Shown one piece after another: positions 2,752-25,430 of a stretch of DNA of 64,000 nt. Location: assembly GCA_964638055.1 (NCBI GenBank), contig CAZWXF010000001.1:63115-127114 (forward strand), given 5' to 3'. The first letter of the stretch is position 1, and every line of letters begins with the position of its first letter. Both the position numbers and the translations under genes were made by a program. This stretch comes from an uncultured Bifidobacteriaceae bacterium (GTDB lineage: Bacteria > Actinomycetota > Actinomycetes > S36-B12 > CAIYMF01). The notes beneath the pieces are model-generated. The model was not told where the DNA came from and did no database searches. It worked only from the letters and a program-made list of their open reading frames with translations.

Positions 2752-3252
2752 GTGTGCGATGCTGCCGCAGTGAGTGATCCCGGGCCCGCGTTGAACAACC
2801 GGATCGCCCTGTGGCGCGAGGCGCCCGAGGCGGACGCCGCCGCGGAGCTGGCAGCGCTGCTCGACTGGGCCTCGGTGCTCATCGACGTTCCCGAGGGTGG
2901 GGGCCGCAAGGAGTTCTTCGAGGCCTGTGCGCAGGCCTTCGGCTTCCCCGACTACTTCGATCACAGCTGGGATGCCTTCGAGGAGTGCCTGGAGTCGCAG
3001 GAGTTCGAGGAGGTCGAGGACCTCGACGACGCCGACGGGCTCCTGGTCCTGTGGTCGGGCTGGGGGCATCTCGCCGAGAACGAGCCCGAGGAGTTCGCAA
3101 TCGCCCTGGACGTCTTCCGGAACATCCTGCGGTCGTGGGAGGGCACCGACCTGGCCGCTCGCGTGGTCCTCGTGGGCGACGGCCCGGAGCTGACCCACCA
3201 GCACCACGAGCTCATCCTCGAGGACGACTATCTGGACGCCGCCGACTTCTGA
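2752..3252 (+). CDS. Barstar-family (barnase/RNase inhibitor-like) protein
   Basis: The segment KEFFEACAQAFGFPDYFDHSWDAFEECL matches the typical barstar core (FGFPDYFG.N.DAL.DCL). The protein is acidic. The start is uncertain between GTG 2752 and GTG 2770. Confidence 0.7.
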   Translation: MCDAAAVSDPGPALNNRIALWREAPEADAAAELAALLDWASVLIDVPEGGGRKEFFEACAQAFGFPDYFDHSWDAFEECLESQEFEEVEDLDDADGLLVLWSGWGHLAENEPEEFAIALDVFRNILRSWEGTDLAARVVLVGDGPELTHQHHELILEDDYLDAADF

Positions 3253-4880
3253 GACGGCCGTCCGGGGGCCTGGACCACGAGGCTGGCCGCGCGCTGGCGC
3301 GCCGGCCCGTCCGCGGGCATCAGGGAGCGGTTGGTCGGGCCCAGGAGCAGGGTGAGGCCGTGCTGCGGCGGACGCAGCAGGACGACTGCCACCACCGTCG
3401 CGGCCAGGACGGCGGCGATGCCGTCGCGCACATCCACGACGGTGTCGGCGGTCGCGTTCGACTCGGCCATCCCGTGCACGATCAGCACGAGGGTCACCAG
3501 CAGCGCCAGCCGCAGTGCGCCGGCCCGCAGGCCCGTGGCCGCCAGCAGGGGCAGCGCCCAGAGCAGGTACCAGGGCTGCACGACCGGGCCCAGAGCCACC
3601 ACGGCGAGGAGGGCCAGGGCCGCCCCGCGCACGGCGCTGCGGCCGTGCGGGGCGAGCACCAGGTACAGGTAGATCACCGCGCCCACGAGCATGGCCAGGG
3701 CCCTGATCAACCCGACGGCGGTGTCGGTGCTCCCCAGTGAGATCCGCTCGAGCACCCAGCCCAGGATCATCCCGATGGCTGTCGACGGGGACAGCCACGT
3801 CCGTACGGAGCCCGGGGTGCTCAGCGAGGCGACCCACCCGAGCCCGACGCGGGCGACCACCGACAGCGCGACGAAGACGATCAGGACGAGCAGACCCGAC
3901 CTGGCCCAGGCTGCGATCCGCTGCCACCAACCCGCCCGGACCCCGGCCCAGACGAGGCCGGCGAAGGGCAGCACGATCAGGGCGATCGGCTTGACGGCTC
4001 CCGCCAGTCCGATCAGGACGATCCCTCGAACGGGAGAGCGATCGAGGCATCCGGCCAGGCCGGCCACGATCAGCCCGACCATCAGGGCGTCGTTGTGGGC
4101 CCCTGCGACGAAGTGCATGAGCACGAGCGGGTTGAGCACGGCCAGCCACAGTGCCGACGGCGCGTGGATGCCGTGGCGATGGGCGAGCTGGGGCACCTGG
4201 CGGACGAGCAGCATGACCCCGGTCAGGGCGACGAGCCGGAACAGGATGGCGCCGGCGTAGGCGTTCCGGCCGGCGACAGCGGCGACGCCCTGCTCGATGA
4301 GCAGGAAGGCCGGACCGTAGGGCGTGGGTGCCTCGGCCCACAGGGGGTCCGCGCCGCTCTGGAACCATCCCGGCAGTGCCGAGACCCCCTGCTGGTACGG
4401 GCTGATGCCGGCGAGCAGCAGCTGGCCCTGGGCGTAGTAGGAGTAGGCGTCCCGGCTGAACAGCGGGGGCATGAGGATCAGGGGCGCGATCCAGATCGCG
4501 AGGATCCGCGCCAGCCGGGTCACGTCGGCCTCGTGCCCGTCCAGGACCGCGATCCCCAGTCGTAGCCACGCCTGCAGGAGGACCGCGACGCCCAGGAACA
4601 CAGCGATGCGGGACAGGCCCGCGCCGGTCGTGGTCGCCCGCAGCCAGGTGACGATCGCAGCGTCCAGCAGCTGCGAGCTCGCCGGCAACCAGCCCACCCC
4701 GAGGGACCCCAGGAAGAGCAGCACGCTGCCCGCCATCCCCAGCAGGGCGTGGCTGCGGAAGCTCGGCGGTGGGGGCGGGGCCTCCGGCGCTGGCGGCAGG
4801 TCGAGCAGGTGCCGCTCGGGCGGGGGCATGGGGGGCAGGGTATCCGGGCCTGCGCGCGCATCCTGCCGCGCGAGCCCCAC
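3228..4880 (-). CDS. Polyprenol-phosphate-mannose-dependent alpha-(1->6)-mannosyltransferase-like GT-C membrane protein (MptA/MptB family)
   Basis: The protein has many TM segments. FSRDAYSYYAQGQ sits in the first loop and HNDAL is present. The gene lies between a kinase and a polyprenyl synthase, as Rv2174 does in M. tuberculosis. The true start is probably downstream of 4880 (for example MPPPER at 4829), because idsA starts only 17 nt away on the other strand. Confidence 0.7.
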   Translation of the reverse strand: MGLARQDARAGPDTLPPMPPPERHLLDLPPAPEAPPPPPSFRSHALLGMAGSVLLFLGSLGVGWLPASSQLLDAAIVTWLRATTTGAGLSRIAVFLGVAVLLQAWLRLGIAVLDGHEADVTRLARILAIWIAPLILMPPLFSRDAYSYYAQGQLLLAGISPYQQGVSALPGWFQSGADPLWAEAPTPYGPAFLLIEQGVAAVAGRNAYAGAILFRLVALTGVMLLVRQVPQLAHRHGIHAPSALWLAVLNPLVLMHFVAGAHNDALMVGLIVAGLAGCLDRSPVRGIVLIGLAGAVKPIALIVLPFAGLVWAGVRAGWWQRIAAWARSGLLVLIVFVALSVVARVGLGWVASLSTPGSVRTWLSPSTAIGMILGWVLERISLGSTDTAVGLIRALAMLVGAVIYLYLVLAPHGRSAVRGAALALLAVVALGPVVQPWYLLWALPLLAATGLRAGALRLALLVTLVLIVHGMAESNATADTVVDVRDGIAAVLAATVVAVVLLRPPQHGLTLLLGPTNRSLMPADGPARQRAASLVVQAPGRPSQKSAASR

Positions 4881-4897: not shown

Positions 4898-5968
4898 ATG
4901 GGCGACGGGTCTGCGCTGGCGCAGGAGCAGATGCTTGCCCGCGTCGACCACGTGCTCGGCGAGTTCCTCCAGGAGCAGGCCAAGCTGCTGGCCTCGATCT
5001 CCACCGAGCTGGAGCCCTTCGCGACGTGGTTGTCCGGGCTGCTGTCCGGGGGGAAGCGGCTGCGCCCGTCGTTCTGCATCTGGGGCTACGTCGCGGCGGG
5101 CGGGCACGACCTGCCGGCGGCGATGGGAGCGGCGGCCTCCCTGGAGCTGCTGCAGGCCGGTGCCCTGATCCACGACGATGTCATGGACGCCTCCGACGTC
5201 CGACGCGGGATGCCCGCGGCGCACCGCTCGTTCGCCGAGCATCACCGGGCGGCCGGGTGGACGGGGACCTCACAGCGATTCGGCGACGGCGTCGCGATCC
5301 TGCTCGGCGACATGGCCCTGTGCTGGGCCGACGAGCTGTTCGCCCGCTCCGGCTTCGACCCGGCGACGCTGGCCTCGGCGCGATGGGTCTTCGACATCAT
5401 GCGGACCGAGGTCATGGCCGGCCAGGTCCTCGACCTCGTGGAGCAGGCCAGGGGCGGGGGCTCCGCGCGACGAGCCCTGCACGTCGTGCGGTTCAAGTCG
5501 GCCAAGTACACGATCGAGCGCCCGCTGCATCTGGGCGCTGCGCTGGCCGGGGCCGATCGCCGGCTGCTGGCCGCCCTCTCCGACTACGGGCTTCCGCTGG
5601 GCGAGGCGTTCCAGCTGCGCGACGACATCCTGGGCGTCTTCGGCGACCCGGACACCACGGGCAAGCCGGCCGGCGACGACCTGCGTGAGGGCAAGCGCAC
5701 GCTGCTGCTGGCCGAGGCTGCCCAGCGTGCGGACCCGGAGCAGGCATCAGTCCTGGCTGCCGGCATCGGCGTGCGGGATCTCTCCGACGAACGGGTCGAG
5801 GAGCTTCGCTCCGTCATCATCGCCACGGGGGCCCGGGAGGAGGTCGAGTCGGTGATCACCGCTCGCACGCAGCAGGCGCTCACGGCGTTGGGCGCCATCG
5901 ACGTGCCCGACGACGCTCGGGATGCTCTGGCCGGCCTGGCACTGGCCGCTACGGAGCGTCGGCACTGA
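4898..5968 (+). CDS. idsA: Polyprenyl (geranylgeranyl) diphosphate synthase
   Basis: Both aspartate-rich motifs are present: LIHDDVMDASDVRRG and FQLRDDILGVFGD. I chose the ATG at 4898 (MGDGSALAQEQ). The longer track ORF from 4769 overlaps the divergent gene. Confidence 0.85.
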   Translation: MGDGSALAQEQMLARVDHVLGEFLQEQAKLLASISTELEPFATWLSGLLSGGKRLRPSFCIWGYVAAGGHDLPAAMGAAASLELLQAGALIHDDVMDASDVRRGMPAAHRSFAEHHRAAGWTGTSQRFGDGVAILLGDMALCWADELFARSGFDPATLASARWVFDIMRTEVMAGQVLDLVEQARGGGSARRALHVVRFKSAKYTIERPLHLGAALAGADRRLLAALSDYGLPLGEAFQLRDDILGVFGDPDTTGKPAGDDLREGKRTLLLAEAAQRADPEQASVLAAGIGVRDLSDERVEELRSVIIATGAREEVESVITARTQQALTALGAIDVPDDARDALAGLALAATERRH

Positions 5969-6840
5969 TGGGCCGGGACCTGCTCCGCGCGCTGGCCTCG
6001 GGTGAACCGCTGTTCAGCTTCGAGTTCTTCCCGCCCAGGACCGATGCCGGGGAGGTGCAGCTCTGGCAGGCGATCTCGGAGCTGGCACCGCTGCGGCCGA
6101 CGTTCGTCTCCGTCACCTACGGGGCCGGCGGGTCGACCCGTGACCGGACGGTGCGGATCACCAGCCGGATACAGGCCGAGACCGGGATGACTGCCGTCGC
6201 CCACCTGACCTGTGTGGGGGCCAGCGTCGAGGAGCTCCAGGCGGTGCTGGCTCGCTACCGGGAGGAGGAGATCGGCAACCTGCTGGTGATCCGCGGCGAT
6301 CCTCCGGGAGGGCCCGGGCAGCCGTGGACCTCCGTGCCGGGTGGCCTGGTCCACGCCGACGAGCTGGTCGCACTGGCCCGCCGGGATGCGGACTTCACCG
6401 TCGGGGTGGCCGCCTTCCCCGAGGGGCATCCCGAGTCGGTCGACCTCGACCAGGACGCCCGGATCCTGGCAGCCAAGCAGGAGGCCGGGGCGAGCTTCGC
6501 CGTCACCCAGTTCTTCTTCCAGGCGAAGGACTACTTCACGCTGGTCGAGCGGGCCCAGCGCCACGGCGTGACGATCCCGATCATCCCCGGGCTGATGCCG
6601 GTGACCAACGTGGGCCAGATCCAGCGGTTCGCCGTGCTCTCGGGAGCGGCGTTCCCGGCCGACCTGGCCGAGCGGTTCCAGAAGGTGGCCGCCGACCCCG
6701 CGGCTGTCGTCGATCTGGGCATCGACGTGGCCACGGCGCTCGGGCAGGAGCTCCTGGACGGGGGAGCGCCGGGGCTGCACTTCTACACCCTGAACCGCTC
6801 CACTGCCACGCGCAGGATCTACGGGCGGCTGTCGGGCTAG
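5968..6840 (+). CDS. metF: 5,10-methylenetetrahydrofolate reductase
   Basis: FSFEFFPPRT, VSVTYGAGGSTRDRT, AHLTC, LVIRGDPP and the fragment HFYTLN are present. The start ATG overlaps the idsA stop (TGATG). Confidence 0.9.
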   Translation: MGRDLLRALASGEPLFSFEFFPPRTDAGEVQLWQAISELAPLRPTFVSVTYGAGGSTRDRTVRITSRIQAETGMTAVAHLTCVGASVEELQAVLARYREEEIGNLLVIRGDPPGGPGQPWTSVPGGLVHADELVALARRDADFTVGVAAFPEGHPESVDLDQDARILAAKQEAGASFAVTQFFFQAKDYFTLVERAQRHGVTIPIIPGLMPVTNVGQIQRFAVLSGAAFPADLAERFQKVAADPAAVVDLGIDVATALGQELLDGGAPGLHFYTLNRSTATRRIYGRLSG

Positions 6841-6961
6841 CGCCGATGGCCACGGCCCGGCAGGATTCGGGGGTGAACCGCCCACCCGTCCGTGAGCAGC
6901 TGGGGAGCCGTGGCCCGGCTGCCGGTTCGGCTGCCCCGGCGTCGGCGGGACCCAGGGCCTG

Positions 6962-8707
6962 ATGGACGCCGCGCACGGTGCCGAGATCAGCCTGATCATC
7001 GCCGGTGTGATCCTCGCGGCGGTGATCGGCGTCCGCCTCGCCTCCCGCCTGGGACTGCCCGGTCTGCTGATCTACCTCCTCCTCGGCCTGGTCATCAGCG
7101 ACGACGGCCTGGGCCGGATCGAGTTCCAGGATGCCGAGCTGGCCACGGTCCTGGGCTATGCGGCACTCATCGTGATCCTGGCCGAGGGCGGCCTGACAAC
7201 CAGGCCGTCGAACATCCGTCCCGTCATCGTGCCCGGGATCATCCTGGGCACCCTGGGCGTGGCCCTGAGCATCCTGATCGTCGGCGTGCCCCTGGCCCTG
7301 CTCGCAGGCCTGGATGTCAAGACCGCGGTGCTCATTGGTGCGGTGCTCGCGCCCACCGACGCTGCCGCGGTGTTCACCGTCGCCCGGGGGATGCGACTGC
7401 CGGCACGCCTGCAGACCCTGCTCGAGGCCGAGTCTGGTCTCAACGACGCTCCGGTCGTCGTGCTCGTGGTCCTTCTGTCGACCTCGGCCAGCGCGGGGAT
7501 CCCGGCGTGGTCCGTGCCGATCGTCGTCCTGGTCGAGCTGGCCGGTGGCCTGCTCGTGGGCGTCGGGATCGGCCTCATGGCGCGATGGCTGCTGCCCCGG
7601 CTGGCCCTGCCGGCGGCGGGGCTGTACCCGATCGCCGTAGTGGCGCTGCTCCTGCTGGCGTACGGCACGGCGACTCTGCTGCACTGCTCGGGCTTCGCTG
7701 CGGTGTACGTGGTGGCCCTGATCCTGGCGGCGTCCCCGCTGCCGCACCGGCGGGCGGTGCTGGGGTTCATCGAGGGCCTGGCGTGGTCGGTGCAGATCGG
7801 CCTGTTCATCATGCTGGGCCTCCTGGCCGTGCCCCACCGGCTCGAGCACGTCATCGGCCTGGCACTGGGGACCGGCGTCCTGCTGCTGTTCCTGGCCCGT
7901 CCCCTGAGCGTCCTGGCGAGTCTGTGGCCGTTCGTCCGGCCGGGGTGGATCGCCCGGACGCTGCGGGTGGCGCCGATGCCCTGGCAGTGGGTCGCGTTCA
8001 CCGGATGGGGCGGCCTGCGTGGCGCGGTGCCGATCATCTTCGCGACGATCCCGCTGGGCGAGGGCGTGGCCGACGGCGAGCTGATCTTCGACGTGACGCT
8101 GCTGCTGGTGATCCTGCTGACGGTCGTCCAGGCGCCGACGATGCCGCCGCTGGCCAGGGCGCTGGGCCTCGTCGCGCCGGATCGGGCCGGGGAGCTGACG
8201 GTGGACGTGGCACCCCTGGACAGCCTGCGGGCCGCGTTGCTCGACCTGGACATCCAGGAGGGCTCGCAGCTTGCCGGGACGTACGTCTCCGAGCTGCCGC
8301 TGCCTCGAGGCGCGGTGGTGTCCCTGGTGATCCGGGGCCCGGAGACACTCGTGCCCGACCGCTTCACGCGGCTGCGCGTCGGGGACAGCCTGCTCGTGGT
8401 GGCGACCGACGAGGTCCGCGTGTCGACGGAGCGGGCTCTGCAGGCGGTCTCCCAGGGCGGCCGGTTGGCCGCGTGGTCCGATGAGGAATCGACGACCGGT
8501 TCGGTCGGGACGCCGAGCCGGGGCCGCGCCCGTGCCCGTTTCGGGGGCCGGGCCGGGCGGGGCAGGCCGTCGGGGCCGGACGAGGAACGAGGTGGATCAG
8601 GGGGTCGGGATCATGTCGGTGGTGGTTCGGGGCATGCGACCGGAAGTCCGGAGGGCCGCGGGTCGACGGGGCGGGGGCCGGCAGGAGGTGGTGGTCCCGT
8701 ACCGTGA
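6962..8707 (+). CDS. K+/H+ (monovalent cation:proton) antiporter, CPA1/NhaP2-like, with a C-terminal TrkA-C-like domain and a Gly/Arg-rich tail
   Basis: The N-terminal part has about 12 hydrophobic segments (GLPGLLIYLLLGLVI..., AESGLNDAPVVVL). It is followed by a soluble domain (LSELPLPRGAVVSLVIRG...LRVGDSLLVVA). The last 100 aa or so are low complexity. Confidence 0.8.
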   Translation: MDAAHGAEISLIIAGVILAAVIGVRLASRLGLPGLLIYLLLGLVISDDGLGRIEFQDAELATVLGYAALIVILAEGGLTTRPSNIRPVIVPGIILGTLGVALSILIVGVPLALLAGLDVKTAVLIGAVLAPTDAAAVFTVARGMRLPARLQTLLEAESGLNDAPVVVLVVLLSTSASAGIPAWSVPIVVLVELAGGLLVGVGIGLMARWLLPRLALPAAGLYPIAVVALLLLAYGTATLLHCSGFAAVYVVALILAASPLPHRRAVLGFIEGLAWSVQIGLFIMLGLLAVPHRLEHVIGLALGTGVLLLFLARPLSVLASLWPFVRPGWIARTLRVAPMPWQWVAFTGWGGLRGAVPIIFATIPLGEGVADGELIFDVTLLLVILLTVVQAPTMPPLARALGLVAPDRAGELTVDVAPLDSLRAALLDLDIQEGSQLAGTYVSELPLPRGAVVSLVIRGPETLVPDRFTRLRVGDSLLVVATDEVRVSTERALQAVSQGGRLAAWSDEESTTGSVGTPSRGRARARFGGRAGRGRPSGPDEERGGSGGRDHVGGGSGHATGSPEGRGSTGRGPAGGGGPVP

Positions 8708-8765: not shown

Positions 8766-10331
8766 TCAGGCCCTGCCGATGACCTGCGCGACGATCTCGG
8801 CGGAGAGCCCGACCATCGCCAGGCCCGGGCCCGGGTGGGTCGCGGCACCGACGAGGAAGAGGCCCGGGATCGCTGTGACGTTGCTTGGCCGGCGGCGCAG
8901 TGCATCGGCGGTCAGGGGCTCACCGAGCAGCGCCCCGCCGGGCATGCCGGTGGCCCGCTCCTGGTCTGCGGGGGTGTGGATCTCCCGGTGGCGGATCCGG
9001 CCTGAGAGGTCGGTGCCGCGATCGGCGAGGAGGCGCAGGACGCGGTCGGCCTGCTTCGTCGCGACGCCCGGGGCGTCCCAGTCCATCGTCGCGGGCTGGC
9101 GTCCGCCCGGGCTGTGCGGCGAGACGTCGACGTGGACCGTCCAGGCCTGCAGCCCCGCGGGATGCATCTGGGGGTCGGCGGGAACGTGGGCCCGGATGAC
9201 GGGGTCGGGATCGGGGGCGTCCGCGATCCTGGCGTGCCTCGACGACCGGCGCGCTGGGTCGACGGGAAGCCACACGTGCTCCCACGCTGGCCCCAGCGGT
9301 GGGGGTCCCCAGGTCGAGAGCATCAGGGTCAGCCGGCCGGGTGGCGCAGGCGGGCCGGTCCGGCGGAGGGCCGGGGCGGTGCGTCCCACCAGGCGGGCGG
9401 GGCGGGGTGCTGACCGGGGGGGCGGGTGCGGGGATGCCGTGCCCGGGGGCGCGGCATCGGGGGGGAGCAGTCCCCACACGGCGCTGGTCGAGGGAAGGTC
9501 GGCGACCACCACGTCAGCGGGCAGCCGGGAGGTCGTCGCGCCATCGGTGACCACGACACCGGTGACGCGGCCTGCCGCGAGCTCGATGCGCAGGGCCCGG
9601 GTGCCCAGGAGGACGCGGACCTCCCGCTGGCACACCCGGTCGTGCAGGGCCTGGGCGAGCCGGTGCATGCCGCCCCTGATGTGCCATGCGCCGAACGTCG
9701 CCGCCAGGTAGGGGCCCAGCACTGCGGCCGCCGTGGCGGACCGGGGATCCATCGGTAGGGGGAGTGACCGGTCGGCCATCACGGCACGGGCCCGGGGGTC
9801 GGTCAGGCTGCGCGTGAGGAGGTCCTGCAGGGTGGGTGGCCGGCGTCCGGGGTCGGTGGGGTTGAGCAGGGCGTCGAGCGCGGCAGCGGTCCGAGGAGCT
9901 GGGCCGGTCAGTCCACCGCGCACGAGTGCCCAGGTCGCGGCGGCGTGGGCCATCACCTCCTGCCATTCGGCGGCGCTGGCCGGCCCCAGGGCCTCGCCGA
10001 CGGCCGCTGCGGTCGCCCCCACTCCCGCTCCGGGCAGCTCCAGGTGCGTCCCGTCGGCGAAGTGGTAGTGAGCGGCCGGCTCCAGGGGCACGAGCTCCAC
10101 CTCGTCCTCCAGGGGGCCGCCGGTCTTGAGGAAGAGGTCGCGGTACACGGCGGGGAGGGTCAGGGCCGTTGGCCCCAGCTCGAAGGTGCACCCGTCCCGT
10201 TCGACGGCTCGGACCTGACCGCCCGGAGTCGTCGACGTCTCGACGAGAGTGACGTCGTGGCGCTTCACGGCCAGCCGTGCGGCGACGGCCATCCCACCCA
10301 GCCCGGCGCCGATGACGACGATCCTGGCCAT
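8766..10331 (-). CDS. Phytoene-desaturase-family (CrtI-like) FAD-dependent oxidoreductase
   Basis: The N-terminus has the dinucleotide-binding motif MARIVVIGAGLGGMAVAARL...LVETSTTPGG. The C-terminus has GLFLVGAATHPGPGL. There is an internal Pro/Arg-rich insertion. Confidence 0.75.
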   Translation of the reverse strand: MARIVVIGAGLGGMAVAARLAVKRHDVTLVETSTTPGGQVRAVERDGCTFELGPTALTLPAVYRDLFLKTGGPLEDEVELVPLEPAAHYHFADGTHLELPGAGVGATAAAVGEALGPASAAEWQEVMAHAAATWALVRGGLTGPAPRTAAALDALLNPTDPGRRPPTLQDLLTRSLTDPRARAVMADRSLPLPMDPRSATAAAVLGPYLAATFGAWHIRGGMHRLAQALHDRVCQREVRVLLGTRALRIELAAGRVTGVVVTDGATTSRLPADVVVADLPSTSAVWGLLPPDAAPPGTASPHPPPRSAPRPARLVGRTAPALRRTGPPAPPGRLTLMLSTWGPPPLGPAWEHVWLPVDPARRSSRHARIADAPDPDPVIRAHVPADPQMHPAGLQAWTVHVDVSPHSPGGRQPATMDWDAPGVATKQADRVLRLLADRGTDLSGRIRHREIHTPADQERATGMPGGALLGEPLTADALRRRPSNVTAIPGLFLVGAATHPGPGLAMVGLSAEIVAQVIGRA

Positions 10332-10385
10332 CTTCGGCGCCCTCCAGCGGTCGAGGGACGATCCACAGGGATCGGATCAGCGGGG

Positions 10386-10415
10386 TTGACGTCTGTCAGT
10401 GGCCCGGCGTAACCT
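10386..10415 (+). promoter_or_regulatory. DNA-damage promoter: TTGACG -35, a RecA-NDp (PafBC-type) element and a TAACCT -10
   Basis: TTGACG (10386-10391) is followed by an 18-nt spacer and TAACCT (10410-10415). Inside the spacer, cTGTCAGTG (10393-10401), 8 nt and TAACCT match the mycobacterial RecA-independent DNA-damage promoter consensus tTGTCRgtg-N8-TAnnnT. Confidence 0.65.
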
Positions 10416-10424
10416 ACGGATAGT

Positions 10425-10440
10425 TCGAACACCAGTTCGA
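10425..10440. promoter_or_regulatory. LexA SOS box
   Basis: TCGAAC-ACCA-GTTCGA matches the actinobacterial LexA consensus TCGAAC-N4-GTTCGA exactly. It lies about 10 nt downstream of the -10 hexamer, so it overlaps the expected TSS. Confidence 0.8.
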
Positions 10441-10597
10441 ACTCTGGTTCCGAGTCCCCGGCCCTTGGATCCAGGGCTGGGATCGGCCTGCGGTTGCGGG
10501 GGAAGCGCGACTGCGGGCCGATCCTGCCACACCGTCGTCTTCCCCGGCGATGCCGATCAGGACGCAGCCCGTCCGCGGACTCCGAGGAAGGACTCCC

Positions 10598-10903
10598 ATG
10601 AGCCGTACCTACGAAGAACCCATCGACGTCCGGCGCTCCGGCGCCATCCCACCGACGGACCGGCCGGTCCAGTTCCTCTGGCGTGGCCGGCTCTACGTGG
10701 TCAGGGACGTGATCTCGCACTGGATCGAGTCGGCCCCGTGGTGGGGCGGATCAAGGCGGGCCCTCGAGGGGGAGATACCAGCGCACGAACACGAGGTCTG
10801 GCGGGTGGAGGCCCAGGCCGGGCGCAGCGACAGCGCAGGCGTCTACGACCTGCGTCGGGACATGGCCGCGGACCGCTGGGTCCTGGCCCGGGCGATGGAC
10901 TGA
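10598..10903 (+). CDS. Small conserved protein, DUF6504-like
   Basis: I chose ATG 10598 because a GGAAGGA RBS precedes it; the track ORF starts at 10550. The sequence PVQFLWRGRLYVVRDVISHWIE..WW...EVWRVEA...GVYDL is what I recognise as the DUF6504 family that precedes SAV_6107-type HEPN genes. Confidence 0.7.
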   Translation: MSRTYEEPIDVRRSGAIPPTDRPVQFLWRGRLYVVRDVISHWIESAPWWGGSRRALEGEIPAHEHEVWRVEAQAGRSDSAGVYDLRRDMAADRWVLARAMD

Positions 10904-10910
10904 TGATGAG

Positions 10911-11333
10911 ATGAGCGTGACGTCGACCAACCCGCCCCTCTCGTACCAGACCCGCGATCTCCTCGGCTCGGCGGCTCGTGGCCTCCTGGAGGCCCACGCG
11001 AGCCCCGATCCGTCTCGGCGGTACGCCTTGGCGCACCTGTCCGCGTTGCGAGCAGCCGCCGCGGTGCTGGCGGCCCGAGCCCACCCGGGCAACCGGGCTC
11101 GTATCCGCAGCGTGTGGGCGGTGCTGCCGACGGTGGCCCCCCAGCTGCAGGAGTGGTCAGCCTTCTTCGCCGCCAACGCCGGCAAGCGGGCGGCCGCGGA
11201 TGCCGGCCTTCCTGTGGTGAGCCACCGCGAGGCCGACGACCTGATCCGCGACGCGGAGACGTTCCTGGCCGAGGTCGCATCCCTCATCGGACGCGACTTC
11301 CAGGTGACCCTCCCGGATCGGCGCGTGGGGTGA
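10911..11333 (+). CDS. SAV_6107-family HEPN-domain-like protein
   Basis: The protein looks helical, contains RYALAH (an Rx4H arrangement) and ends in a helix SHREADDLIRDAETFLAEV that is typical of HEPN domains. It starts 8 nt after the previous gene and ends 3 nt before the polymerase gene. Confidence 0.65.
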   Translation: MSVTSTNPPLSYQTRDLLGSAARGLLEAHASPDPSRRYALAHLSALRAAAAVLAARAHPGNRARIRSVWAVLPTVAPQLQEWSAFFAANAGKRAAADAGLPVVSHREADDLIRDAETFLAEVASLIGRDFQVTLPDRRVG

Positions 11334-11336
11334 CCC

Positions 11337-14300
11337 ATGGCTCGGTTCGTCCACCTGCATGTGGCCTCCGGGTACTCGATGCGCTACGGGACCGCCCGGC
11401 CGGAGGACCTTGTGGCGCAGGCTGCCGCGATGGGCCAGGAGGCGCTAGCCCTGACAGACCGGGACGGCGCCTACGGGGCCGTCGCCTTCGCCCTGGCGTG
11501 CCGTCAGGCCGGGATCGCACCGATCCTCGGCGCAGACCTGGCCACCGCCGCCCAGCTCTCGGCCGGCCGATCCACGGGACGCGCCGGAGGCGGACGCTCT
11601 GCGTCACCGCCGCGGACCCCGGTCCGGGGTGGGGCCTCGGTCGATCCGGGGCATCCCCGCCTGGTGCTGCTGGCCATCGGGGCGCCGGGGTGGGCTTCGC
11701 TCAGCAGGGTCATCTCGGCCGCACACCTCTCGGGCGAGCGCGGGCAGCCGGTCGTGTCCGGCGCGATGCTCGCCGAGCGCTCGCGGGGGCTGGCCGCCCT
11801 CATCGGCCCGGACTCCGACGTGGGCAGGGCGCTGGCCCGGCGCCGGCCGGACGAGGCCGCGCGGCTGCTCGCGGGGTGGCGTGAGGTGCTCGGGGCGGGC
11901 GTCCGGATCGAGGTGGTGTCCCACCGCAGCCAGGCTCGTGGGGATCGGCCCGCCTGGTCTGCCGCGTTCGCGGCCCGGATGGTGGACCTCGCCCGGCAGT
12001 GCGGCGTCCCGGCGGTGCTGACCAACGCGGTGCGTCACCTGACCCCGGAGCAGGCCCCCGTGGCGGACGTCCTGGACGCGATCCGGCGGCTGGTGCCGCT
12101 GGCCCCGCGGCACCTCGATCGGGCCAACGCCCAGGGCTATCTCAAGGATGCCGACTCGATGGCCGAGGTGGCCCGCGAGATCGCCGAGGCCGGGGGAGCG
12201 GGGGCGGGGTCGGCCAGCAGGCTGCTCGACGCGACGCTCGAGCTCGCCGACTCCTGTCGGATGGACCCGGCGCGGGACCTGGGCATCGGGTCGGTCCATG
12301 TCCCCGAGCTGGACGTGCTGTTCCCGCAGGGAGCCGCAGGACTCCCGCCGGGTCCCCTGCCGACGGCGACCGGAGCCCAGGCGCGGATGGCCGACCGCGT
12401 GCTGCGACACAGGTGCCAGGGCGCGCTCGATGCGCGCTTCGCAGCGCGCTGGGAGCACAGGGCGGCCACCGAGAGGCTCGAGGAGGAGCTGGCGACCATC
12501 GCCACGCTCGGGTACGGCGGGTACTTCCTTACCGTCGCGGAGGTGGTGGACATGATCCGTGGGATGGGGGTCCGGGTCGCCGCCCGCGGCTCCGGTGCAG
12601 GCAGCCTGGTGAACCACCTGCTCGGGATCTCGGTGGTCGACCCGCTGGAGCACGGGCTGATCATGGAGCGGTTCCTCTCCCCGCTGCGGCAGGCCCTGCC
12701 CGACGTGGACATCGACGTGGAGTCCGCCCGCCGCACCGAGATCTACACCCGGCTGCTCGCCCGGTTCGGTGGCCAGCGCTGCGTGGCGGTCTCGATGATG
12801 GACACCTACCGGGTCCGCCACGCGATCCGCGACGTGGGCGCTGCGCTCGGCCTGCCTCCCGGGGAGATCGACGCCTTCGCCAAGGCCTTCCCCCACATCC
12901 GGGCCCGGGACGCCCGGGCGGCGCTCGTGGAGCTGCCCGAGCTGCGCAGCTCCGGACTGGGCAAGCTCGCGGCGCAGGGTCGGTTGGAGGGATTCCTCAG
13001 CCTGGTCGAGGCCCTCGACGGGCTGCCCCGCCACGTCGCCCTGCACCCCTGCGGCGTGCTGCTCAGCGACGCCTCACTGCTGGACCGCACGCCCGTGGAG
13101 GCCAGCTGGATGGGCTTCCCGATGAGCCAGTTCGACAAGGACGCGGTCGAGGAGATGGGCTTCCTCAAGCTGGACGTCCTGGGCATCCGGATGCAGTCGG
13201 CAATGGCCCATGCCCTCGACGAGGTCGTCCGGCTCGGCGAGGAGCCGGTGTCCCTGGACGACCTTCCGCTGGACGATCCCGACACGTTCGCGATGATCCG
13301 CACGACCCATACCCTCGGCTGCTTCCAGATCGAGTCCCCCGGCCAGCGGGAGCTGATCGGGCGCTTCGCCCCGGAGACGTTCGCGGACCTGATCATCGAC
13401 ATCTCGCTGTTCCGGCCGGGGCCGGTCAAGTCCGACATGGTCAACCCCTTCCTGCGCGCCCGGCAGGGATGGTCCCCGGTGGACCTGCCCCATCCGGACC
13501 TGGGTCCCGTGCTCGACCAGACCCACGGCGTGGTGGTGTTCCACGAGCAGGTGATCGGGGTGATCGCCGTCATGAGCGGCTGCAGCCTGGCCGAGGGCGA
13601 CGAGCTGCGCCGCTCGATGGGATCGCCGGAGGGGCAGGCCCAGGTCCGGGCGTGGTTCTACCCACGGGTGCTGGCGCGGGGGTATCCCCTCGAGGTGGTC
13701 GACCGGGTCTGGGAGGTGCTGCGCTCCTTCGCGTCGTTCGGCTTCTGCAAGGCCCATGCCGCTGCGTTCGCGCTGCCCACGTACCAGTCGGCATGGCTCA
13801 AGGCTCACCATCCGGCCGCCTTCCTGGCCGGGGTGCTGACCCACGATCCCGGGATGTACCCGAAGCGCCTGATCCTCGATGATGCCCGCAACCTGGGCAT
13901 CACCATCCTCGGCGTGGACATCAACCGCTCGGGCCCGGTGTACCGGGTCGAGGAGTGGCCGACGCCGTCGGCTCGCCCGACGCTGCCGGGCCTGCCCGAT
14001 GGCAGCCACCACGGCATCCGGATGCCCCTGGCCGAGGTCAAGGGGATCTCCGCGGCCGAGGTGGCGCAGATCGTCGCAGGCCAGCCGTACAGCAGCCTCT
14101 CGGACTTCTGGCACCGGGCCGGAGTCACCGCCCCGGTCGTGGAGAACCTCGTCCTCATCGGCGGCTTCGACTCCGTCTACGGCATCGACCTCGCCAGCGG
14201 TGTCCGGGCGCGCGGCCAGACGACGCGACGGGACCTGCTGCTGGAGGTGGCCGACTGCGACCGGCTCTCCCGGGTCACCCGGGCGCGTCGGGCGGGCAGG

Positions 14301-15428
14301 GCCCGGGGGGCTCGGGCGGGCGGGGTGGGTTCGGTGGCCGGGCCGCAGGCGGGGAGCAGGAGCCCTCTCGGGGCGGACCTGGCAACAGCCTCCCGGGTCG
14401 GCGCGGCGTTCCGAGCCGGTGCTTCCTTCCGAGCCATGGCCCCCCCGACCGGCGGGATCGCCACGGCCGGCGCCGCCCTGGACGAGGAGGAGGTGCTCCG
14501 CAGCTGCGACGCGGTTCAGCCGGCTGGCCTGTCCGATCCCGCGCCACCCCCGCAGGCCTGGTGGGATCCGGCCCGCGCCGCTGCGGCGCAGTCCCAGGCC
14601 CCAGCCCCGGCGCTCGCCGGTCCGGTCCAGCTGGCCATGGACCTGCCCTCGCCGGGATCGGGGTGTGCCAGTGGGCTGCCCGAGATGACCACGGGGGAGA
14701 GCGTCCGCACGGAGCTGGGCATCCTGGGGATGGACGTGAGCCAGCACGTGCTGGACTTCTACGCCCCGATGCTCGCCGACATCGGGGTGGTGCCCGCCCG
14801 TGATCTCCTCGCCCAGCGCAGTCGGCAGGAGGTGTGGGTCGCCGGGGTGAAGGTGGCCACGCAGACCCCACCGATACGCAGCGGGCGCCGGGTGCTCTTC
14901 CTGACGGTCGACGACTCGACCGGTCCCGTGGACGCCACCTTCTTCGAGGACGCCCAGGATCCGTACGCCGCGACCGTCTTCGGTGGCTGGCTGCTGCTGG
15001 TCCGGGGCATCACCCGCCGCACCGGGCCCCGGGGGATATCCCTGCGGGCCACGGGCTGCTGGGATCTCGGCGTGGTCCACGGGATCTGGCAGGCCGGTGG
15101 TCGAGCCGGCGCCTGGGAGTACGTGAGCAGCTTCCCTCGGATCGAGGCTGACGGGCGGCCCACGAAGGTCGCCGACGTCCAGGTGGCGGGCGACCGGGAG
15201 ACGCCGCGGCAGCCGGGCCAGTCCGTGGTCGGCATCGGGCGCCATGCGTCAGGGGGCATGGGCCAGCGGCGACGGGTCCTGGTCCATGCCAGTGGGTTCA
15301 AGCAGTCGCCCTACGCGGACGTCAAGCCGGCAGGGGACGACCCGAGCGGCACCCCGCGGATACCCGAGCAGCCGACCCCCGCTCCCGGTCGGCTCTGGCA
15401 CGCCAGCCAGGGAAGCAGCGGCTGGTGA
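11337..15428 (+). CDS. dnaE2: Error-prone DNA polymerase III alpha-like subunit (DnaE2-like), with a large low-complexity insertion
   Basis: The N-terminus is a PHP domain (FVHLHVASGYSMRYG, LTDRDGAYG). The pol III alpha core is present (DVDIDVES, LKLDVLGIRMQS, GCFQIESPGQRE, FGFCKAHAAAFA). The C-terminus has an OB-fold region and ends in RLWHASQGSSGW. The window also contains a separate replicative dnaE. Confidence 0.85.
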   Translation: MARFVHLHVASGYSMRYGTARPEDLVAQAAAMGQEALALTDRDGAYGAVAFALACRQAGIAPILGADLATAAQLSAGRSTGRAGGGRSASPPRTPVRGGASVDPGHPRLVLLAIGAPGWASLSRVISAAHLSGERGQPVVSGAMLAERSRGLAALIGPDSDVGRALARRRPDEAARLLAGWREVLGAGVRIEVVSHRSQARGDRPAWSAAFAARMVDLARQCGVPAVLTNAVRHLTPEQAPVADVLDAIRRLVPLAPRHLDRANAQGYLKDADSMAEVAREIAEAGGAGAGSASRLLDATLELADSCRMDPARDLGIGSVHVPELDVLFPQGAAGLPPGPLPTATGAQARMADRVLRHRCQGALDARFAARWEHRAATERLEEELATIATLGYGGYFLTVAEVVDMIRGMGVRVAARGSGAGSLVNHLLGISVVDPLEHGLIMERFLSPLRQALPDVDIDVESARRTEIYTRLLARFGGQRCVAVSMMDTYRVRHAIRDVGAALGLPPGEIDAFAKAFPHIRARDARAALVELPELRSSGLGKLAAQGRLEGFLSLVEALDGLPRHVALHPCGVLLSDASLLDRTPVEASWMGFPMSQFDKDAVEEMGFLKLDVLGIRMQSAMAHALDEVVRLGEEPVSLDDLPLDDPDTFAMIRTTHTLGCFQIESPGQRELIGRFAPETFADLIIDISLFRPGPVKSDMVNPFLRARQGWSPVDLPHPDLGPVLDQTHGVVVFHEQVIGVIAVMSGCSLAEGDELRRSMGSPEGQAQVRAWFYPRVLARGYPLEVVDRVWEVLRSFASFGFCKAHAAAFALPTYQSAWLKAHHPAAFLAGVLTHDPGMYPKRLILDDARNLGITILGVDINRSGPVYRVEEWPTPSARPTLPGLPDGSHHGIRMPLAEVKGISAAEVAQIVAGQPYSSLSDFWHRAGVTAPVVENLVLIGGFDSVYGIDLASGVRARGQTTRRDLLLEVADCDRLSRVTRARRAGRARGARAGGVGSVAGPQAGSRSPLGADLATASRVGAAFRAGASFRAMAPPTGGIATAGAALDEEEVLRSCDAVQPAGLSDPAPPPQAWWDPARAAAAQSQAPAPALAGPVQLAMDLPSPGSGCASGLPEMTTGESVRTELGILGMDVSQHVLDFYAPMLADIGVVPARDLLAQRSRQEVWVAGVKVATQTPPIRSGRRVLFLTVDDSTGPVDATFFEDAQDPYAATVFGGWLLLVRGITRRTGPRGISLRATGCWDLGVVHGIWQAGGRAGAWEYVSSFPRIEADGRPTKVADVQVAGDRETPRQPGQSVVGIGRHASGGMGQRRRVLVHASGFKQSPYADVKPAGDDPSGTPRIPEQPTPAPGRLWHASQGSSGW

Positions 15429-15485
15429 TGGCGCGAGAGTGGCCAGCGCACCGGGTGACGGGCACAGGGCGCAGGGGACTGCAGG

Positions 15486-16769
15486 ATGGGGGGCACAGGA
15501 GGGTGGATGAGTCGAAGTCAGATCAACCGGCCGGCGGCTCCGGCGGGATTGGGCGACGACGATCGGGGCTGTCGCATCCTCCACGTGGACATGGACGCGT
15601 TCTACGCCTCGGTGGAGGTGGCGCGGCGCCCGGAGCTGCGTGGACGGCCGATGATCGTCGGGGGGATGGGCAGCCGGGGCGTCGTGCTGGCCGCCACCTA
15701 CGAGGCCCGTCGCCACGGCATCCACTCGGCGATGCCCATGAGTCGTGCCCTGCGCCTCGGACCGCCCGACCTGGTCGTCGTGCAGCCCGACCACGCGCGC
15801 TACGCCCAGGTGTCGGCTGCTGTCATGGAGGTGTTCACCTCGATCACGCCGTTCGTGGAGCCACTGAGCCTCGACGAGGCCTTCCTGGACGTGTCCGGCT
15901 GCCGGCTGACCCACGGCTCGCCGGGCGCGATAGCGGCGAGCATCCGCGATCAGGTCCACGACGAACAGGGCATCACCTGCTCGGTCGGGGTGGCGCCGAC
16001 GAAGTTCGTGGCCAAGCTGGCATCGACCCAGTGCAAGCCGGACGGCCTGCTGGTCGTGCCGGCCGACCAGGTGATCGCCTTCCTGCATCCCATGCCCGTG
16101 GGTGCCCTCTGGGGGGTGGGGGAGCGCACAGAGGAGCAGCTGCACCGCCTCGGCCTGCGCACGGTGGCCGACATCGCCCACACCCCGACCCAGACCCTCG
16201 TCCGCGCTCTGGGCCAGGCAGCGGGTCGCCATCTGGCGGATCTGGCCTGGGGTCGAGACGATCGCGACGTCACGCTGCATCAGCGGGAGCGCAGCGTGGG
16301 GGCCGAGGAGACCTTCGCGCGAGACGTCGACGATCCCGAGATCGTCCTGGCAGAGCTCCTGCGCCTCAGCGAGAAGGTGGGTGGCCGGATGCGACGGGCG
16401 GGGCTGTCGGGCAGCACGGTCACCATCAAGGTCCGGTTCGCCGACTTCAGCACGGTCACCCGATCCCGCCGCCTGCGTGCCTCGACCGCGGTGAGTCGGG
16501 AGATCTTCCATGGAGCTCGGGACCTCTACCTGGCCATGCACCTGGACCGGGCGCGGATACGACTGGTCGGCGTCCGGATGGAGGGGATCGCGCTGGAGGA
16601 GACCGTCGAGACGCAACTCATCCTGGGGGCGCCCGAGCGGGGCTGGCGGGAGGCCGAGCAGGCGGTGGACCGGGTGATCGCGAAGTTCGGCCGGGACACC
16701 GTCCGACATGCCCGCCTGATCCCCGAGAAGGGCCACGCGAGCGGCCATCCTGGGGGCACCCGACCATGA
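15486..16769 (+). CDS. dinB: DNA polymerase IV (Y-family), with catalytic residues present
   Basis: ILHVDMDAFYASVE, LSLDEAFLDVS and CSVGVAPTKFVAKLAS are present. The start may instead be the ATG at 15507 (MSRSQ). Confidence 0.9.
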   Translation: MGGTGGWMSRSQINRPAAPAGLGDDDRGCRILHVDMDAFYASVEVARRPELRGRPMIVGGMGSRGVVLAATYEARRHGIHSAMPMSRALRLGPPDLVVVQPDHARYAQVSAAVMEVFTSITPFVEPLSLDEAFLDVSGCRLTHGSPGAIAASIRDQVHDEQGITCSVGVAPTKFVAKLASTQCKPDGLLVVPADQVIAFLHPMPVGALWGVGERTEEQLHRLGLRTVADIAHTPTQTLVRALGQAAGRHLADLAWGRDDRDVTLHQRERSVGAEETFARDVDDPEIVLAELLRLSEKVGGRMRRAGLSGSTVTIKVRFADFSTVTRSRRLRASTAVSREIFHGARDLYLAMHLDRARIRLVGVRMEGIALEETVETQLILGAPERGWREAEQAVDRVIAKFGRDTVRHARLIPEKGHASGHPGGTRP

Positions 16770-16970
16770 CCGGCCGCAGACCGACCCCGGGCGGGGCCGC
16801 AACCCGAGCGCCCGCATGGCAAGATCAGCGCCGGTGTCCTCGCCTGCAGGGGCGTTCCCTCCCCCGGGCGGGCCCCACAGAGCGTGCCCCGAGTTCCCTT
16901 ATCGGGCAACCCTGCCTATCCTGAGCCTTAGAGGCACCGCGCACGACCGTGAGCCATGTAGGAGGTCACC

Positions 16971-17384
16971 GTGCCACTCTCTGAGCACGAGCAGCGCCTG
17001 CTTGAGCAGATGGAGCGTGCCCTCTACGCAGAGGACCCGAAGTTCGCCACGAGCATGCGCAATCCCCGGGCCGGTGCCGGGGATCGTCGACTTGTCGCCA
17101 TCGGGATCGTCGCGTTCCTCGGAGGCATGGGTCTGCTGGTTGCCGGGGTCGCGACGCGACTGGTTCCCGTGGGAGTCCTCGGCTTCCTGCTGATGCTCGG
17201 CGGCATCTGGCTTGCAGTGGCATCGTTCCGCCCCGGCGGGGCCGCGCCAGCGGCCGGTGCGGCGCCCCAGGGCCACCCGACACCCATCCGCGGGCACTCG
17301 AAGCCGCGACGTTCGTCCCGCGGCTCGATCTCCGAGCGCATGGAGGAGCGATGGCGGCATCGCCGGGAGCGCGGCGACCTCTGA
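16971..17384 (+). CDS. DUF3040-family membrane protein (Rv2169c-like)
   Basis: It begins with GTG preceded by an AGGAGG RBS. The N-terminus reads PLSEHEQRLLEQMERALYAEDPKF, followed by two TM helices. Confidence 0.8.
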   Translation: MPLSEHEQRLLEQMERALYAEDPKFATSMRNPRAGAGDRRLVAIGIVAFLGGMGLLVAGVATRLVPVGVLGFLLMLGGIWLAVASFRPGGAAPAAGAAPQGHPTPIRGHSKPRRSSRGSISERMEERWRHRRERGDL

Positions 17385-17387
17385 CCC

Positions 17388-17703
17388 AGTAGAGACCAGA
17401 GGCGCCGGCCGAGAGGCGCCGGTCGAGCCCAAACGCCGGTCGAGCCCGTCGAGACCAGCGCCCATCGAGCCCAGCGTCGAGCCCAGCGCCGGTCGAACCC
17501 AAACGCCGGTCGAGCCTGTCGAGACCAGCGCCCGTCGAGCCCAGCGCCGCTCGAGCCCAGCGTCGAGCCCAGCGCCGGTCGAGCCCAAACGCCGGTCGAG
17601 CCTGTCGAGACCAGCGCCCGTCGAGCCCAGCGCCGCCAGAGCCCGTCGAGCCCAGCGCCGGTCGAGCCCGTCGAGACCAGCGCCGGTCGAGCCCGTCGGG
17701 TCG
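17388..17703. repeat. Degenerate tandem array of the GTCGAGCCC/GTCGAGACC repeat family (locus A)
   Basis: GTCGAGCC[C/T], GTCGAGACC and AGCGCC(G) modules recur many times, with an 86-bp higher-order period between 17501 and 17587. An inverted copy GTCTCGACGGGCTCGACC lies at 17796-17813. Confidence 0.85.
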
Positions 17704-17815
17704 GATCATCGGGGGAAAGCCATGGCACCGGCGGGCATGGCTCGTGGCTGCCTGTCCCGTGCCTGTCCCGCGGCCAAGAGGTCGTGCGACAGTGCGTCTC
17801 GACGGGCTCGACCCG

Positions 17816-17846
17816 CGTCTTGGGTCTCACTCGGAGACCCAAGACG
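17816..17846. terminator. Bidirectional hairpin between convergent genes
   Basis: The stem is a perfect 13-bp pairing, CGTCTTGGGTCTC / GAGACCCAAGACG, with loop ACTCG. It lies 7 nt from the stop of the minus-strand hydrolase gene. GTCTTGGGTCTC recurs at 60167-60178. Confidence 0.6.
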
Positions 17847-17853
17847 AGATGTG

Positions 17854-18651: not shown

Positions 18652-18855
18652 GAATCGATCCCTTCCCAGAAGGTCGGCGGTGGTCGCGATCGCTGCGCAG
18701 CCCCGCGCGCAGCCCGAAGGGGCGGCCCTGCGAGCGGCGCGAGCCGCGAACGCCGCGCCAGAGTAACGCGTTCGGGACGACCCCGGGCACGCCCCCCTCC
18801 GGAGGAGGGTAGGAGGTGCTGGCCACAATGAGGCCGACCCCAGGGAGGAAATGCG

Positions 18856-19398: not shown

Positions 19399-19416
19399 CG
19401 CCCCCCGGAGGGCGTC
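19397..19416 (+). terminator. Hairpin directly after the MaoC gene stop
   Basis: GACGCCC-cccgga-GGGCGTC forms a 7-bp stem. There is no U tract, which is common in high-GC actinobacteria. Confidence 0.35.
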
Positions 19417-19471
19417 GGCCCGCCAGGCCCCCCGGGCGCGCGACGAAGGACGAGCACAGCCCGCCGATCCC

Positions 19472-23906: not shown

Positions 23907-23909
23907 CCC

Positions 23910-25426
<1,517 letters not shown>

Positions 25427-25430
<4 letters not shown>

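Follow-up and report, generated by a model that had tools for sequence, protein, structure and literature searches.

Predicted LexA-gated promoter with a PafBC-type element upstream of a conserved four-gene DNA polymerase operon in an uncultured actinobacterium

Promoter-operator and operon at the locus

The window analysed here is a stretch of 64,000 nucleotides (64 kb; G+C ~73%) from an uncultured Bifidobacteriaceae bacterium (GenBank assembly GCA_964638055.1, contig CAZWXF010000001.1, positions 63,115 to 127,114 of the forward strand). Positions 10386-10440 of its + strand are predicted from the sequence to serve as promoter and operator for a conserved SOS operon of four genes (10598-16769, + strand), in which an operator for LexA is stacked on a promoter that carries a PafBC-type element. 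A first-pass annotation, made from the letters of the window, had described these two DNA-damage signals and had proposed that, if both work, the genes would be expressed only when LexA is cleaved and PafBC activates the promoter. The two motifs do lie where it had placed them, on the + strand and inside 55 bp (sequence reading and coordinate check), in the order TTGACG-tc-TGTCAGTG-gcccggcg-TAACCT-acggatagt-TCGAACACCAGTTCGA. We consider a different control logic to be reasonably likely, in which LexA would act as an indispensable gate, and PafBC would probably boost expression without being a second requirement. The features of the promoter region are:

10386-10391, + strand: -35 hexamer TTGACG, near-consensus, with an 18-bp spacer to the -10 (sequence reading and ortholog conservation)
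10394-10401, + strand: PafBC-type -26 element TGTCAGTG, with the GTC triplet at 10395-10397 (~-27 to -25 from the predicted transcription start site, TSS)
10402-10409, + strand: spacer N8 gcccggcg (sequence reading; cTGTCAGTG is at 10393-10401)
10410-10415, + strand: -10 hexamer TAACCT, with T1 in 27/27, A2 in 25/27, and T6 in 24/27 dereplicated promoter clusters of the ortholog set described below
10425-10440, no strand assigned: LexA operator (SOS box) TCGAACACCAGTTCGA, at ~+4 to +19 if the TSS is ~10422
10437-10452, no strand assigned: degenerate second LexA-like site TCGAACTCTGGTTCCG, with two mismatches, sharing GTTCGAAC with the main box

If transcription starts 7 nt past the -10 hexamer, the TSS would be A10422, which would put the -35 hexamer at -36 to -31 and give a leader of 176 nt. 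The LexA box begins 9 nt past the -10 and would thus cover the predicted start at ~10422, as the first-pass annotation had proposed. That annotation had also mentioned two proteins of unknown function downstream; these are the DUF6504 and HEPN_SAV_6107 proteins, although it had not recognised that their genes open an operon of four tightly packed genes that encodes translesion polymerases:

10584-10592, + strand: Shine-Dalgarno sequence (SD) GAGGAAGGA of the first gene (sequence reading)
10598-10903, + strand: gene 1, DUF6504 protein, 101 aa (Pfam PF20114, 68.5 bits)
10911-11333, + strand: gene 2, HEPN_SAV_6107 protein, 140 aa (Pfam PF18726, 113 bits)
11337-15428, + strand: gene 3, divergent DNA polymerase III alpha paralog, 1363 aa, DnaE2-like by context (Pfam PHP, DNA_pol3_alpha, finger, HHH_6, and OB)
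15486-16769, + strand: gene 4, DinB/DNA polymerase IV, 427 aa (Pfam IMS, IMS_C, and IMS_HHH)

The start of gene 1 at 10598 is fixed by the N-termini of homologs (MSRTY/MTRRY).

Conservation of the operon and the LexA operator

The ortholog set consisted of the best 80 of 400 DUF6504-encoding stretches, with one genome per species (81 loci counting the window), and promoters were anchored on the -10 hexamer and dereplicated to 27 clusters. DUF6504 homologs numbered 1196, the closest being encoded in uncultured actinomycete metagenome-assembled genomes (MAGs) labelled Nanopelagicales; the 80 loci represent several actinobacterial orders, and include Nanopelagicales-labelled MAGs, Frankiales, Acidothermaceae, Sporichthyaceae, Propionibacteriales, Embleya, and Peterkaempfera. 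The order DUF6504-HEPN-DnaE is kept in essentially all 80 loci (the HEPN gene is missing in a few Propionibacteriales/Nocardioidaceae loci), and in 71 of the 81 loci the gene after the DnaE paralog encodes DinB, the remainder being incomplete contigs.

The 16-bp palindrome TCGAAC-N4-GTTCGA was searched for on both strands of the window, with 100 dinucleotide-preserving shuffles as a control. The exact LexA box of the first-pass annotation is the single match in 64 kb, against none in 100 shuffles. Upstream of DUF6504, a LexA box was found in all 81 loci (77 exact, three with one mismatch, and one with two mismatches), and its distance from the -10 hexamer is 8-10 nt in every locus (9 nt in the window). 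For the predicted LexA operator, the support is as strong as can be had from sequence data. Its assignment to the divergent minus-strand neighbour, a CrtI/CrtD-like FAD oxidoreductase gene (8766-10331), was rejected because that neighbour is not conserved beside the promoter.

Further LexA-like sites occur around the main box. The functional role of the second site at 10437-10452 is uncertain; comparably weak second sites are found in only a few relatives (L022, L038, L046, and Embleya) and are generally not conserved. Four relatives (L005, L006, L008, and L010) carry an additional exact LexA box, TCGAACTGATGTTCGA, which lies 150-220 bp upstream of the main one, and a fifth (L003) has it with one mismatch; in these close relatives the upstream box presumably serves another, divergently placed neighbour that is absent from the window. 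In Embleya (L041, L044, L045, L047, L048, L050, L056, L060, L066, and L068), extra GTTCGA/TCGAAC half-sites lie directly 3' of the main box, and these may be tandem operators.

The PafBC-type -26 element

The PafBC/RecA-independent (RecA-NDp) promoter consensus is tTGTCRgtg-N8-TAnnnT (PMC5656591), and the PafBC consensus derived from chromatin immunoprecipitation is tGTCgg(N10)tA(N3)T, with an invariant GTC read-out (PMC8635444). The RecA-NDp motif that had been claimed for this promoter is present: TGTCRGTG-N8-TANNNT has one match in the window (10394-10415, coding strand) and none in 100 shuffles, and the shorter PafBC core TGTCRG-N10-TANNNT has one match against a shuffle mean of 0.03. Contact by PafB was placed at -23 to -28, the ‘-26 element’, by Müller et al. 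(PMC8635444), with which the position of the GTC triplet at ~-27 to -25 agrees. For both motifs, the strongest evidence that excludes a chance match is that their position is conserved in orthologous loci. The proposition that two short motifs merely happen to co-occur in a GC-rich intergenic region draws on the shortness of the motifs and on nothing else; it is refuted by the shuffles (0/100 for each motif) and by conservation of position in 80 genomes and on at least 120 metagenomic contigs (see below), and we assign it negligible probability.

The orthologous regions give a mixed picture of the PafBC motif. GTC stands in the exact register in 63 of the 81 loci, at exactly -15 from the -10, with no more than seven occurrences at any other spacer position, and the full core TGTCRG-N10-TAnnnT is present in 44/81 loci; the element is absent from 18/81. 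Across the 27 clusters, spacer positions -16 to -11 read T(17) G(24) T(20) C(24) n G(25). The other spacer bases diverge freely among lineages, and the GTC register is thus indicative of constraint, not of mere inheritance. A different reading of the spacer region, with TGAC...GTCA as the inverted-repeat site of a dimeric factor, was rejected on the grounds that the two halves shift relative to each other, by 3 nt among lineages, while TGTC stays at a fixed distance from the -10.

Each related locus has one PafBC core at the operon promoter, and the ~1 Mb searched contains only ~6 further matches. Three of these additional matches (L015:1722-1743, L018:2985-3006, and L019:2417-2438) read TGTCGGTC-N8-TAGGCT, without a -35 or a LexA box, and precede a leaderless Glyoxalase_6 (VOC family) gene with its ATG 6 nt past the -10. 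From this promoter in close relatives, the lineage appears to use the PafBC motif in its canonical form too, and it is against this -35-less form that the -35 of the operon promoter stands out. The assignment is supported by the exact register and the orientation, by conservation that is deep though not complete, and by recurrence before other SOS genes (see next section); the candidate element of the window is probably a PafBC element.

A separate PafBC-core match, TGTCGGCGATGCGGGATATCGT, was observed on a linear plasmid of Streptomyces sp. MMBL 11-1 (L083:7445-7466), ~90 nt upstream of a plasmid-borne lexA; this lexA adjoins a plasmid-borne dnaE paralog that is ~50% identical to the operon DnaE of the window.

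Stacked promoters in metagenomes

A metagenome collection was searched with the pattern TGTCRG-N10-TAnnnT-N7-11-TCGAAC-N4-GTTCGA, with no condition on genes and none on a -35, and yielded at least 120 matches, of which 80 were fetched. Downstream of the fetched matches were:

54/80: DUF6504/HEPN/DnaE operon, distant low-GC versions included
11/80: small LysM-domain membrane proteins
3/80: DUF222 proteins (two also matched by a DUF222/HNH query)
9/80: contig too short to tell
3/80: downstream gene unknown

A TTGnnn hexamer lies 16-20 nt upstream of the -10 in 67 of the 80 fetched stacked promoters, and 36 of these 67 are TTGACG. The LysM membrane proteins (L089, L090, L098, L099, L115, L118, L124, L132, L148, L153, and L154) are of the ChiZ/Rv2719c type and the DUF222/HNH proteins (L096, L128, and L145) of the REP13E12 type; in mycobacteria, genes of both types are established LexA targets (PMC3381160). 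The presence of the stacked promoter before LysM and DUF222/HNH genes thus suggests a design that is general for a subset of actinobacterial SOS genes. The LysM loci are mostly on low-GC metagenomic contigs, probably from freshwater actinobacteria.

This recurrence before ChiZ-like genes bears on the possibility that the operon is controlled by LexA only, with TGTC kept for some other reason (an RNA polymerase spacer contact, another factor such as ClgR, or inheritance). In mycobacteria, the ChiZ gene Rv2719c is reported to be under combined SOS-box and PafBC-motif control (PMC8151990). LexA-only control also sits poorly with the confinement of GTC to one exact position in 63/81 loci while adjoining spacer bases diverge, with the base-for-base agreement of that position with the published PafBC register (orientation included), and with the occurrence of the motif, lacking both LexA box and -35, ahead of a leaderless gene in close relatives. 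It is nonetheless favoured by the universal set, which comprises the LexA box, -35, and -10 alone, and by the dispensability of the TGTC element in Embleya and several MAG lineages; moreover, the PafBC motif is reported not to be conserved in Streptomyces venezuelae (PMC9380542), and ClgR is also reported to recognise the P1 motif (PMC5656591). We regard control by LexA only as rather unlikely, and dual LexA/PafBC input as likely.

The -35 element and control logic

The -35 hexamer had not been weighed in the first-pass annotation. A hexamer of the TTGAC/TTGCG type is present 17-20 nt upstream of the -10 in all 27 clusters and in 80 of the 81 loci. At canonical PafBC promoters, which have no -35, recognition depends on PafBC taking the place of the contact between sigma region 4 and the -35, and these promoters are inactive in its absence (PMC8635444). 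The promoter in the window has the same consensus, GTC triplet, orientation, and -26 position relative to the predicted start as these promoters, but it has both a -35 and a LexA operator, neither of which is a feature of the canonical type (PMC8635444). Given the TTGACG conserved in 80/81 loci, the promoter is not a canonical member of this class, although it may still use PafBC, and the presence of both the -35 and the LexA operator makes a strict requirement for PafBC unlikely.

The strict AND of the first-pass annotation, in which the promoter would be inactive without PafBC and LexA would be an additional lock, is therefore unsupported. Besides the near-consensus TTGACG in 80/81 loci and the TTGnnn in 67/80 metagenomic stacked promoters, 18 loci without TGTC retain the operon, -35, -10, and LexA box. 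An activator-dependent, silent promoter would also hardly need a perfectly conserved repressor site, and neither true PafBC promoters (PMC8635444) nor the Glyoxalase_6 promoter of close relatives has a -35. What such a two-key arrangement would account for is the exact RecA-NDp match with its correct spacing, and the rigidity of the TGTC-to-(-10) distance against a -35-to-(-10) distance that drifts over 17-20 nt, such that the -35-like hexamer could be weak or unused; there is also a parallel in mycobacteria, where imuA'/B and dnaE2 are co-dependent on SOS and PafBC after quinolones (PMC8682763). On balance we consider a strict dependence on both inputs to be quite improbable.

In the preferred reading, with LexA as gate and PafBC as booster, the promoter would be a housekeeping-sigma promoter with -35 TTGACG, -10 TAACCT, and the PafBC-type -26 element TGTCAG within the spacer. 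With TTGACG, this promoter should have activity of its own, which would explain the need for a perfectly conserved repressor site. LexA on its box would block RNA polymerase however recruited, and LexA cleavage after RecA activation would thus be an obligatory gate. Once LexA is removed, the promoter would fire via the ordinary -35/-10 route, and PafBC activated by single-stranded DNA would probably add output by sigma adaptation, for example upon replication-fork or gyrase damage, as in mycobacteria. Because PafBC is positioned between the DNA and sigma region 4 in the cryo-electron microscopy structure, recruitment via the -35 and recruitment via PafBC would be alternative routes to the same -10 and the same start site, and LexA at +4 to +19 would block either. 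The logic would be NOT-LexA AND (sigma-A alone OR sigma-A plus PafBC), to which the structured ~176-nt leader would probably add post-transcriptional control of the first gene. The retention of -35, -10, and LexA box in the 18 loci without TGTC points to LexA control as the invariant core and to PafBC input as accessory.

Several observations weigh against this reading. The 18 loci from which the TGTC element is missing include all ten Embleya loci and several MAG lineages, and the closest relatives have TGTCAGAC/TGTCGGAC in place of TGTCRGTG. In S. venezuelae, Stratton et al. did not find the PafBC motif of Mycobacterium smegmatis to be conserved (PMC9380542). PafB and PafC were not recognised among the ~30 window genes scanned against Pfam; the presence of pafBC in the genome was assumed from its near-universal occurrence in Actinobacteria (PMC8635444). 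For a sigma-70-type promoter, the distance of 18 nt between the -35 and -10 in the window is long, and in many relatives it reaches 19-20 nt; no experimental precedent for a hybrid -35 plus -26 promoter was found in the literature. A scan of 10000-11500 for Escherichia coli-consensus promoters and terminators gave no match, but the negative promoter scan is uninformative because TAACCT agrees with TATAAT at only 3/6 positions.

A structured leader RNA

The predicted leader has a fold energy of -96.3 kcal/mol (z = -4.7), and contains the following elements:

10442-10476, + strand: hairpin H1, degenerate copy in the window, with stem CTCTGG/CCAGGG and inner CCG-AGTCCC-CGG
10478-10526, + strand: hairpin H2, with a 20-bp stem and apical loop GGGGAAG (10499-10505)
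10538-10545, + strand: C-rich element UCUUCCCC, containing CUUCCCC, complementary to the H2 loop GGGGAAG and to the purine-rich Shine-Dalgarno sequence

H1 occurs in ~45 related loci with a 12-24 bp stem and an invariant loop, (A)CUCGACCC. In an ungapped, loop-anchored alignment of 15 H1 sequences, 95.9% of cells are paired and 12 of 13 pairs are compensatory, which none of 500 shuffles reached. H2, with a GGGAAGC loop and a stem of 11-28 bp (3 bp detected in L014), was found in 50 of the 81 loci, as 39 different hairpins. MAFFT plus RNAalifold gave no structure for the H2 region, a failure attributable to misaligned stems, and this approach was replaced by a covariance model (R1) built from close relatives. 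R1 matches the window at 10477-10553 with 73 bits, and the Frankiales/Acidothermaceae loci with E = 2e-5 to 4e-3; a second model (R2) carried H2 to distant loci only marginally (E-values 0.01-0.7). In a 16-sequence alignment, 94.9% of H2 cells pair and 12/17 pairs are compensatory (0/500 shuffles; slid controls 25-45%), although this alignment was fitted to the covariance model and the counts therefore lean toward structure. The many G-U pairs, together with a model score of 29 bits on the minus strand vs 92 bits, indicate an RNA on the mRNA strand. Searches of Rfam 15 with the window and two relatives (gathering and E-value) matched no family, and returned generic hairpin noise only.

3' of H2, the C-rich stretch CCGUCUUCCCCGG (10535-10547) is conserved as CCGUCUUCCCC(C)GG in many loci, and in the Frankiales group the SD itself is GGGGAAG. 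The C-rich element could pair with the H2 loop or with the SD, making a pseudoknot and an anti-SD arrangement possible; both partners are invariant, such that covariation between them is impossible. The leader suggests a switch among SD, anti-SD, and decoy, a proposal drawn from complementarity rather than covariation. Among the 54 independent metagenomic operon leaders, the loop motifs of H1 and H2 were found in 26 and 12, respectively, and in 0/14 leaders of LysM or DUF222 genes.

Variants of this arrangement were seen in individual lineages. Acidothermaceae bacterium B102 (L029) has the full architecture (-35, TGTCGGTG, LexA box, H1, and H2), and in the Embleya loci just 14-22 nt separate H2 from the start codon. 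In Nonomuraea gerenzanensis (L081:6900-7000), a LexA-like box, GAGAACATATGTTCGA, precedes the gene for a distant DUF6504 homolog and is directly followed by CGTCTTCCCCCGG, without H2, and the SD is GGGGAGAAG; a C-rich element without H2 suggests that it may act on the SD by itself.

Comparison with known damage-response systems

Dual LexA/PafBC control is already known, and is extended here to a different operon and to other lineages. In mycobacteria it has been described for recA (P1/P2) and imuA'/imuB via separate promoters, which are 166 nt apart at imuA' (PMC8682763), for ruvC and Rv2100 (PMC3381160), and for Rv2719c, which is reported to be governed by three SOS boxes and a PafBC motif (PMC8151990). 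The window shares with these genes the two motifs, the presumed regulators, and the theme, namely damage induction of recombination or mutagenesis functions, and in ruvC, Rv2100, and Rv2719c both inputs are combined in one promoter region, as here. Unlike recA and imuA', with their separate promoters, the promoter in the window has one -10 for both inputs, with the operator over the start site. It further differs from the mycobacterial dual-control genes in its conserved consensus -35, its structured leader, and the operon downstream.

By layout, the predicted operon resembles the dnaE2-dinB2 operon of Streptomyces (SCO1739-SCO1738; vnz_06640-06635) with two genes added upstream. The Streptomyces operon has an SOS box and is induced by ultraviolet light and methyl methanesulfonate (PMC3273824), and in S. 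venezuelae it is bound by LexA and induced 30-fold by mitomycin C (PMC9380542), which lends indirect support to LexA control at the promoter in the window. Both loci have an upstream SOS box, a gene for a non-essential DnaE paralog with that for a DinB-type Pol IV directly behind it, and a housekeeping dnaE1 at a separate location. The window differs in having DUF6504 and HEPN_SAV_6107 upstream, a PafBC-type element, and a long structured leader, and in a dnaE-dinB gap of 57 nt as against an ATGA overlap in Streptomyces.

The imuA-imuB-dnaE2 cassette is likewise a LexA-regulated operon that has an extra DnaE-family polymerase and a Y-family protein, with small accessory genes first. However, the Y-family protein of the window is a Pol IV with catalytic motifs, whereas ImuB is catalytically dead, and the window operon has no ImuA/ImuA'. 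Identification of the locus as this cassette was rejected on the basis of the DnaE score (615 vs a cut-off of 939 on NF004225), the assignment of the Y-family protein to Pol IV and not ImuB, and the identity of the small genes (DUF6504/HEPN_SAV_6107).

What is added to current understanding, which is extended and not overturned, is the breadth of conservation, the putative hybrid -35/-26 promoter, the link of DUF6504 and HEPN_SAV_6107 to a DnaE2/DinB pair, and a structured leader that has not been described before. In mycobacteria, drug-resistance mutagenesis is believed to be shaped by joint SOS and PafBC control of mutagenic polymerases, a form of control that has been little studied outside this genus; Stratton et al. 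(2022) left open the existence of a PafBC pathway in Streptomyces (PMC9380542). The ~55-bp promoter offers a compact test object for the integration of two pathways at one start site, in which the -35, -26, -10, and LexA operator can be mutated separately. The two small proteins are now tied to the Streptomyces-type DnaE2/DinB2 pair, the role of which was called a mystery by Tsai et al. Taken together, the locus may represent an uncharacterised translesion cassette with DUF6504 and HEPN_SAV_6107 as polymerase accessory factors, controlled by a two-mode hybrid promoter, a LexA operator, and an undescribed leader RNA that gates translation of the first gene; we put this joint reading forward tentatively, and with some doubt. 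Within it, gating by the leader would possibly proceed via SD/anti-SD competition, binding of one of the proteins that the operon encodes, or a C-rich small RNA such as 6C.

Operon proteins and genomic neighbourhood

The DUF6504 protein is predicted to be all-beta in an AlphaFold model based on 18 sequences (predicted local distance difference test score, pLDDT, 80; predicted template modelling score, pTM, 0.72); comparison of this model with PDB structures gave no significant match (best E-value 2).

The operon DnaE scored below the cut-off of both NCBIfam models against which it was compared: DnaE1 (619 against 1002) and error-prone DnaE2 (NF004225; 615 against 939). It retains the PDxDxD catalytic motif and is 29% identical to the dnaE1 product of the window. 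The housekeeping dnaE1 (45425-49177, minus strand) passes the replicative equivalog (1488 vs the cut-off of 1002) and is situated in the usual dcw / ileS / dnaE1 / hisD neighbourhood. The operon DnaE was thus ruled out as the replicative polymerase; the presence of dnaE1 elsewhere in the window, the 29% identity, and the failure on the replicative model together indicate an accessory paralog. The protein is unusually long (1363 aa), and family models cover only residues 3-947 and an OB fold at 1166-1241, such that large inserts and a C-terminal extension are unassigned; its PHP motif is partly degenerate (HLHVAS vs HLHVHT in DnaE1). The Y-family protein passes the NCBIfam Pol IV model (399.7 vs a cut-off of 367) and keeps the DMDAFYASVE and SLDEAF catalytic motifs.

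A search of plasmids with DUF6504 gave distant matches only, without the operon. With the DnaE paralog as query, many plasmid-borne dnaE copies of Streptomyces and Embleya were found (~48-50% identity), and DUF6504 and HEPN genes were absent upstream of the plasmid dnaE at the two loci inspected.

Elsewhere in the window, the two long open reading frames that adjoin a Barstar-family (barnase inhibitor) gene (2752-3252), at 3228-4880 and 5584-6999 (both minus strand), had no Pfam match. On its other side, the operon lies directly upstream of the dcw cell-division cluster (16966-19764; 19764-36381), with mraZ at 19764, then ftsI, murE, murF, ftsW, and ftsZ.

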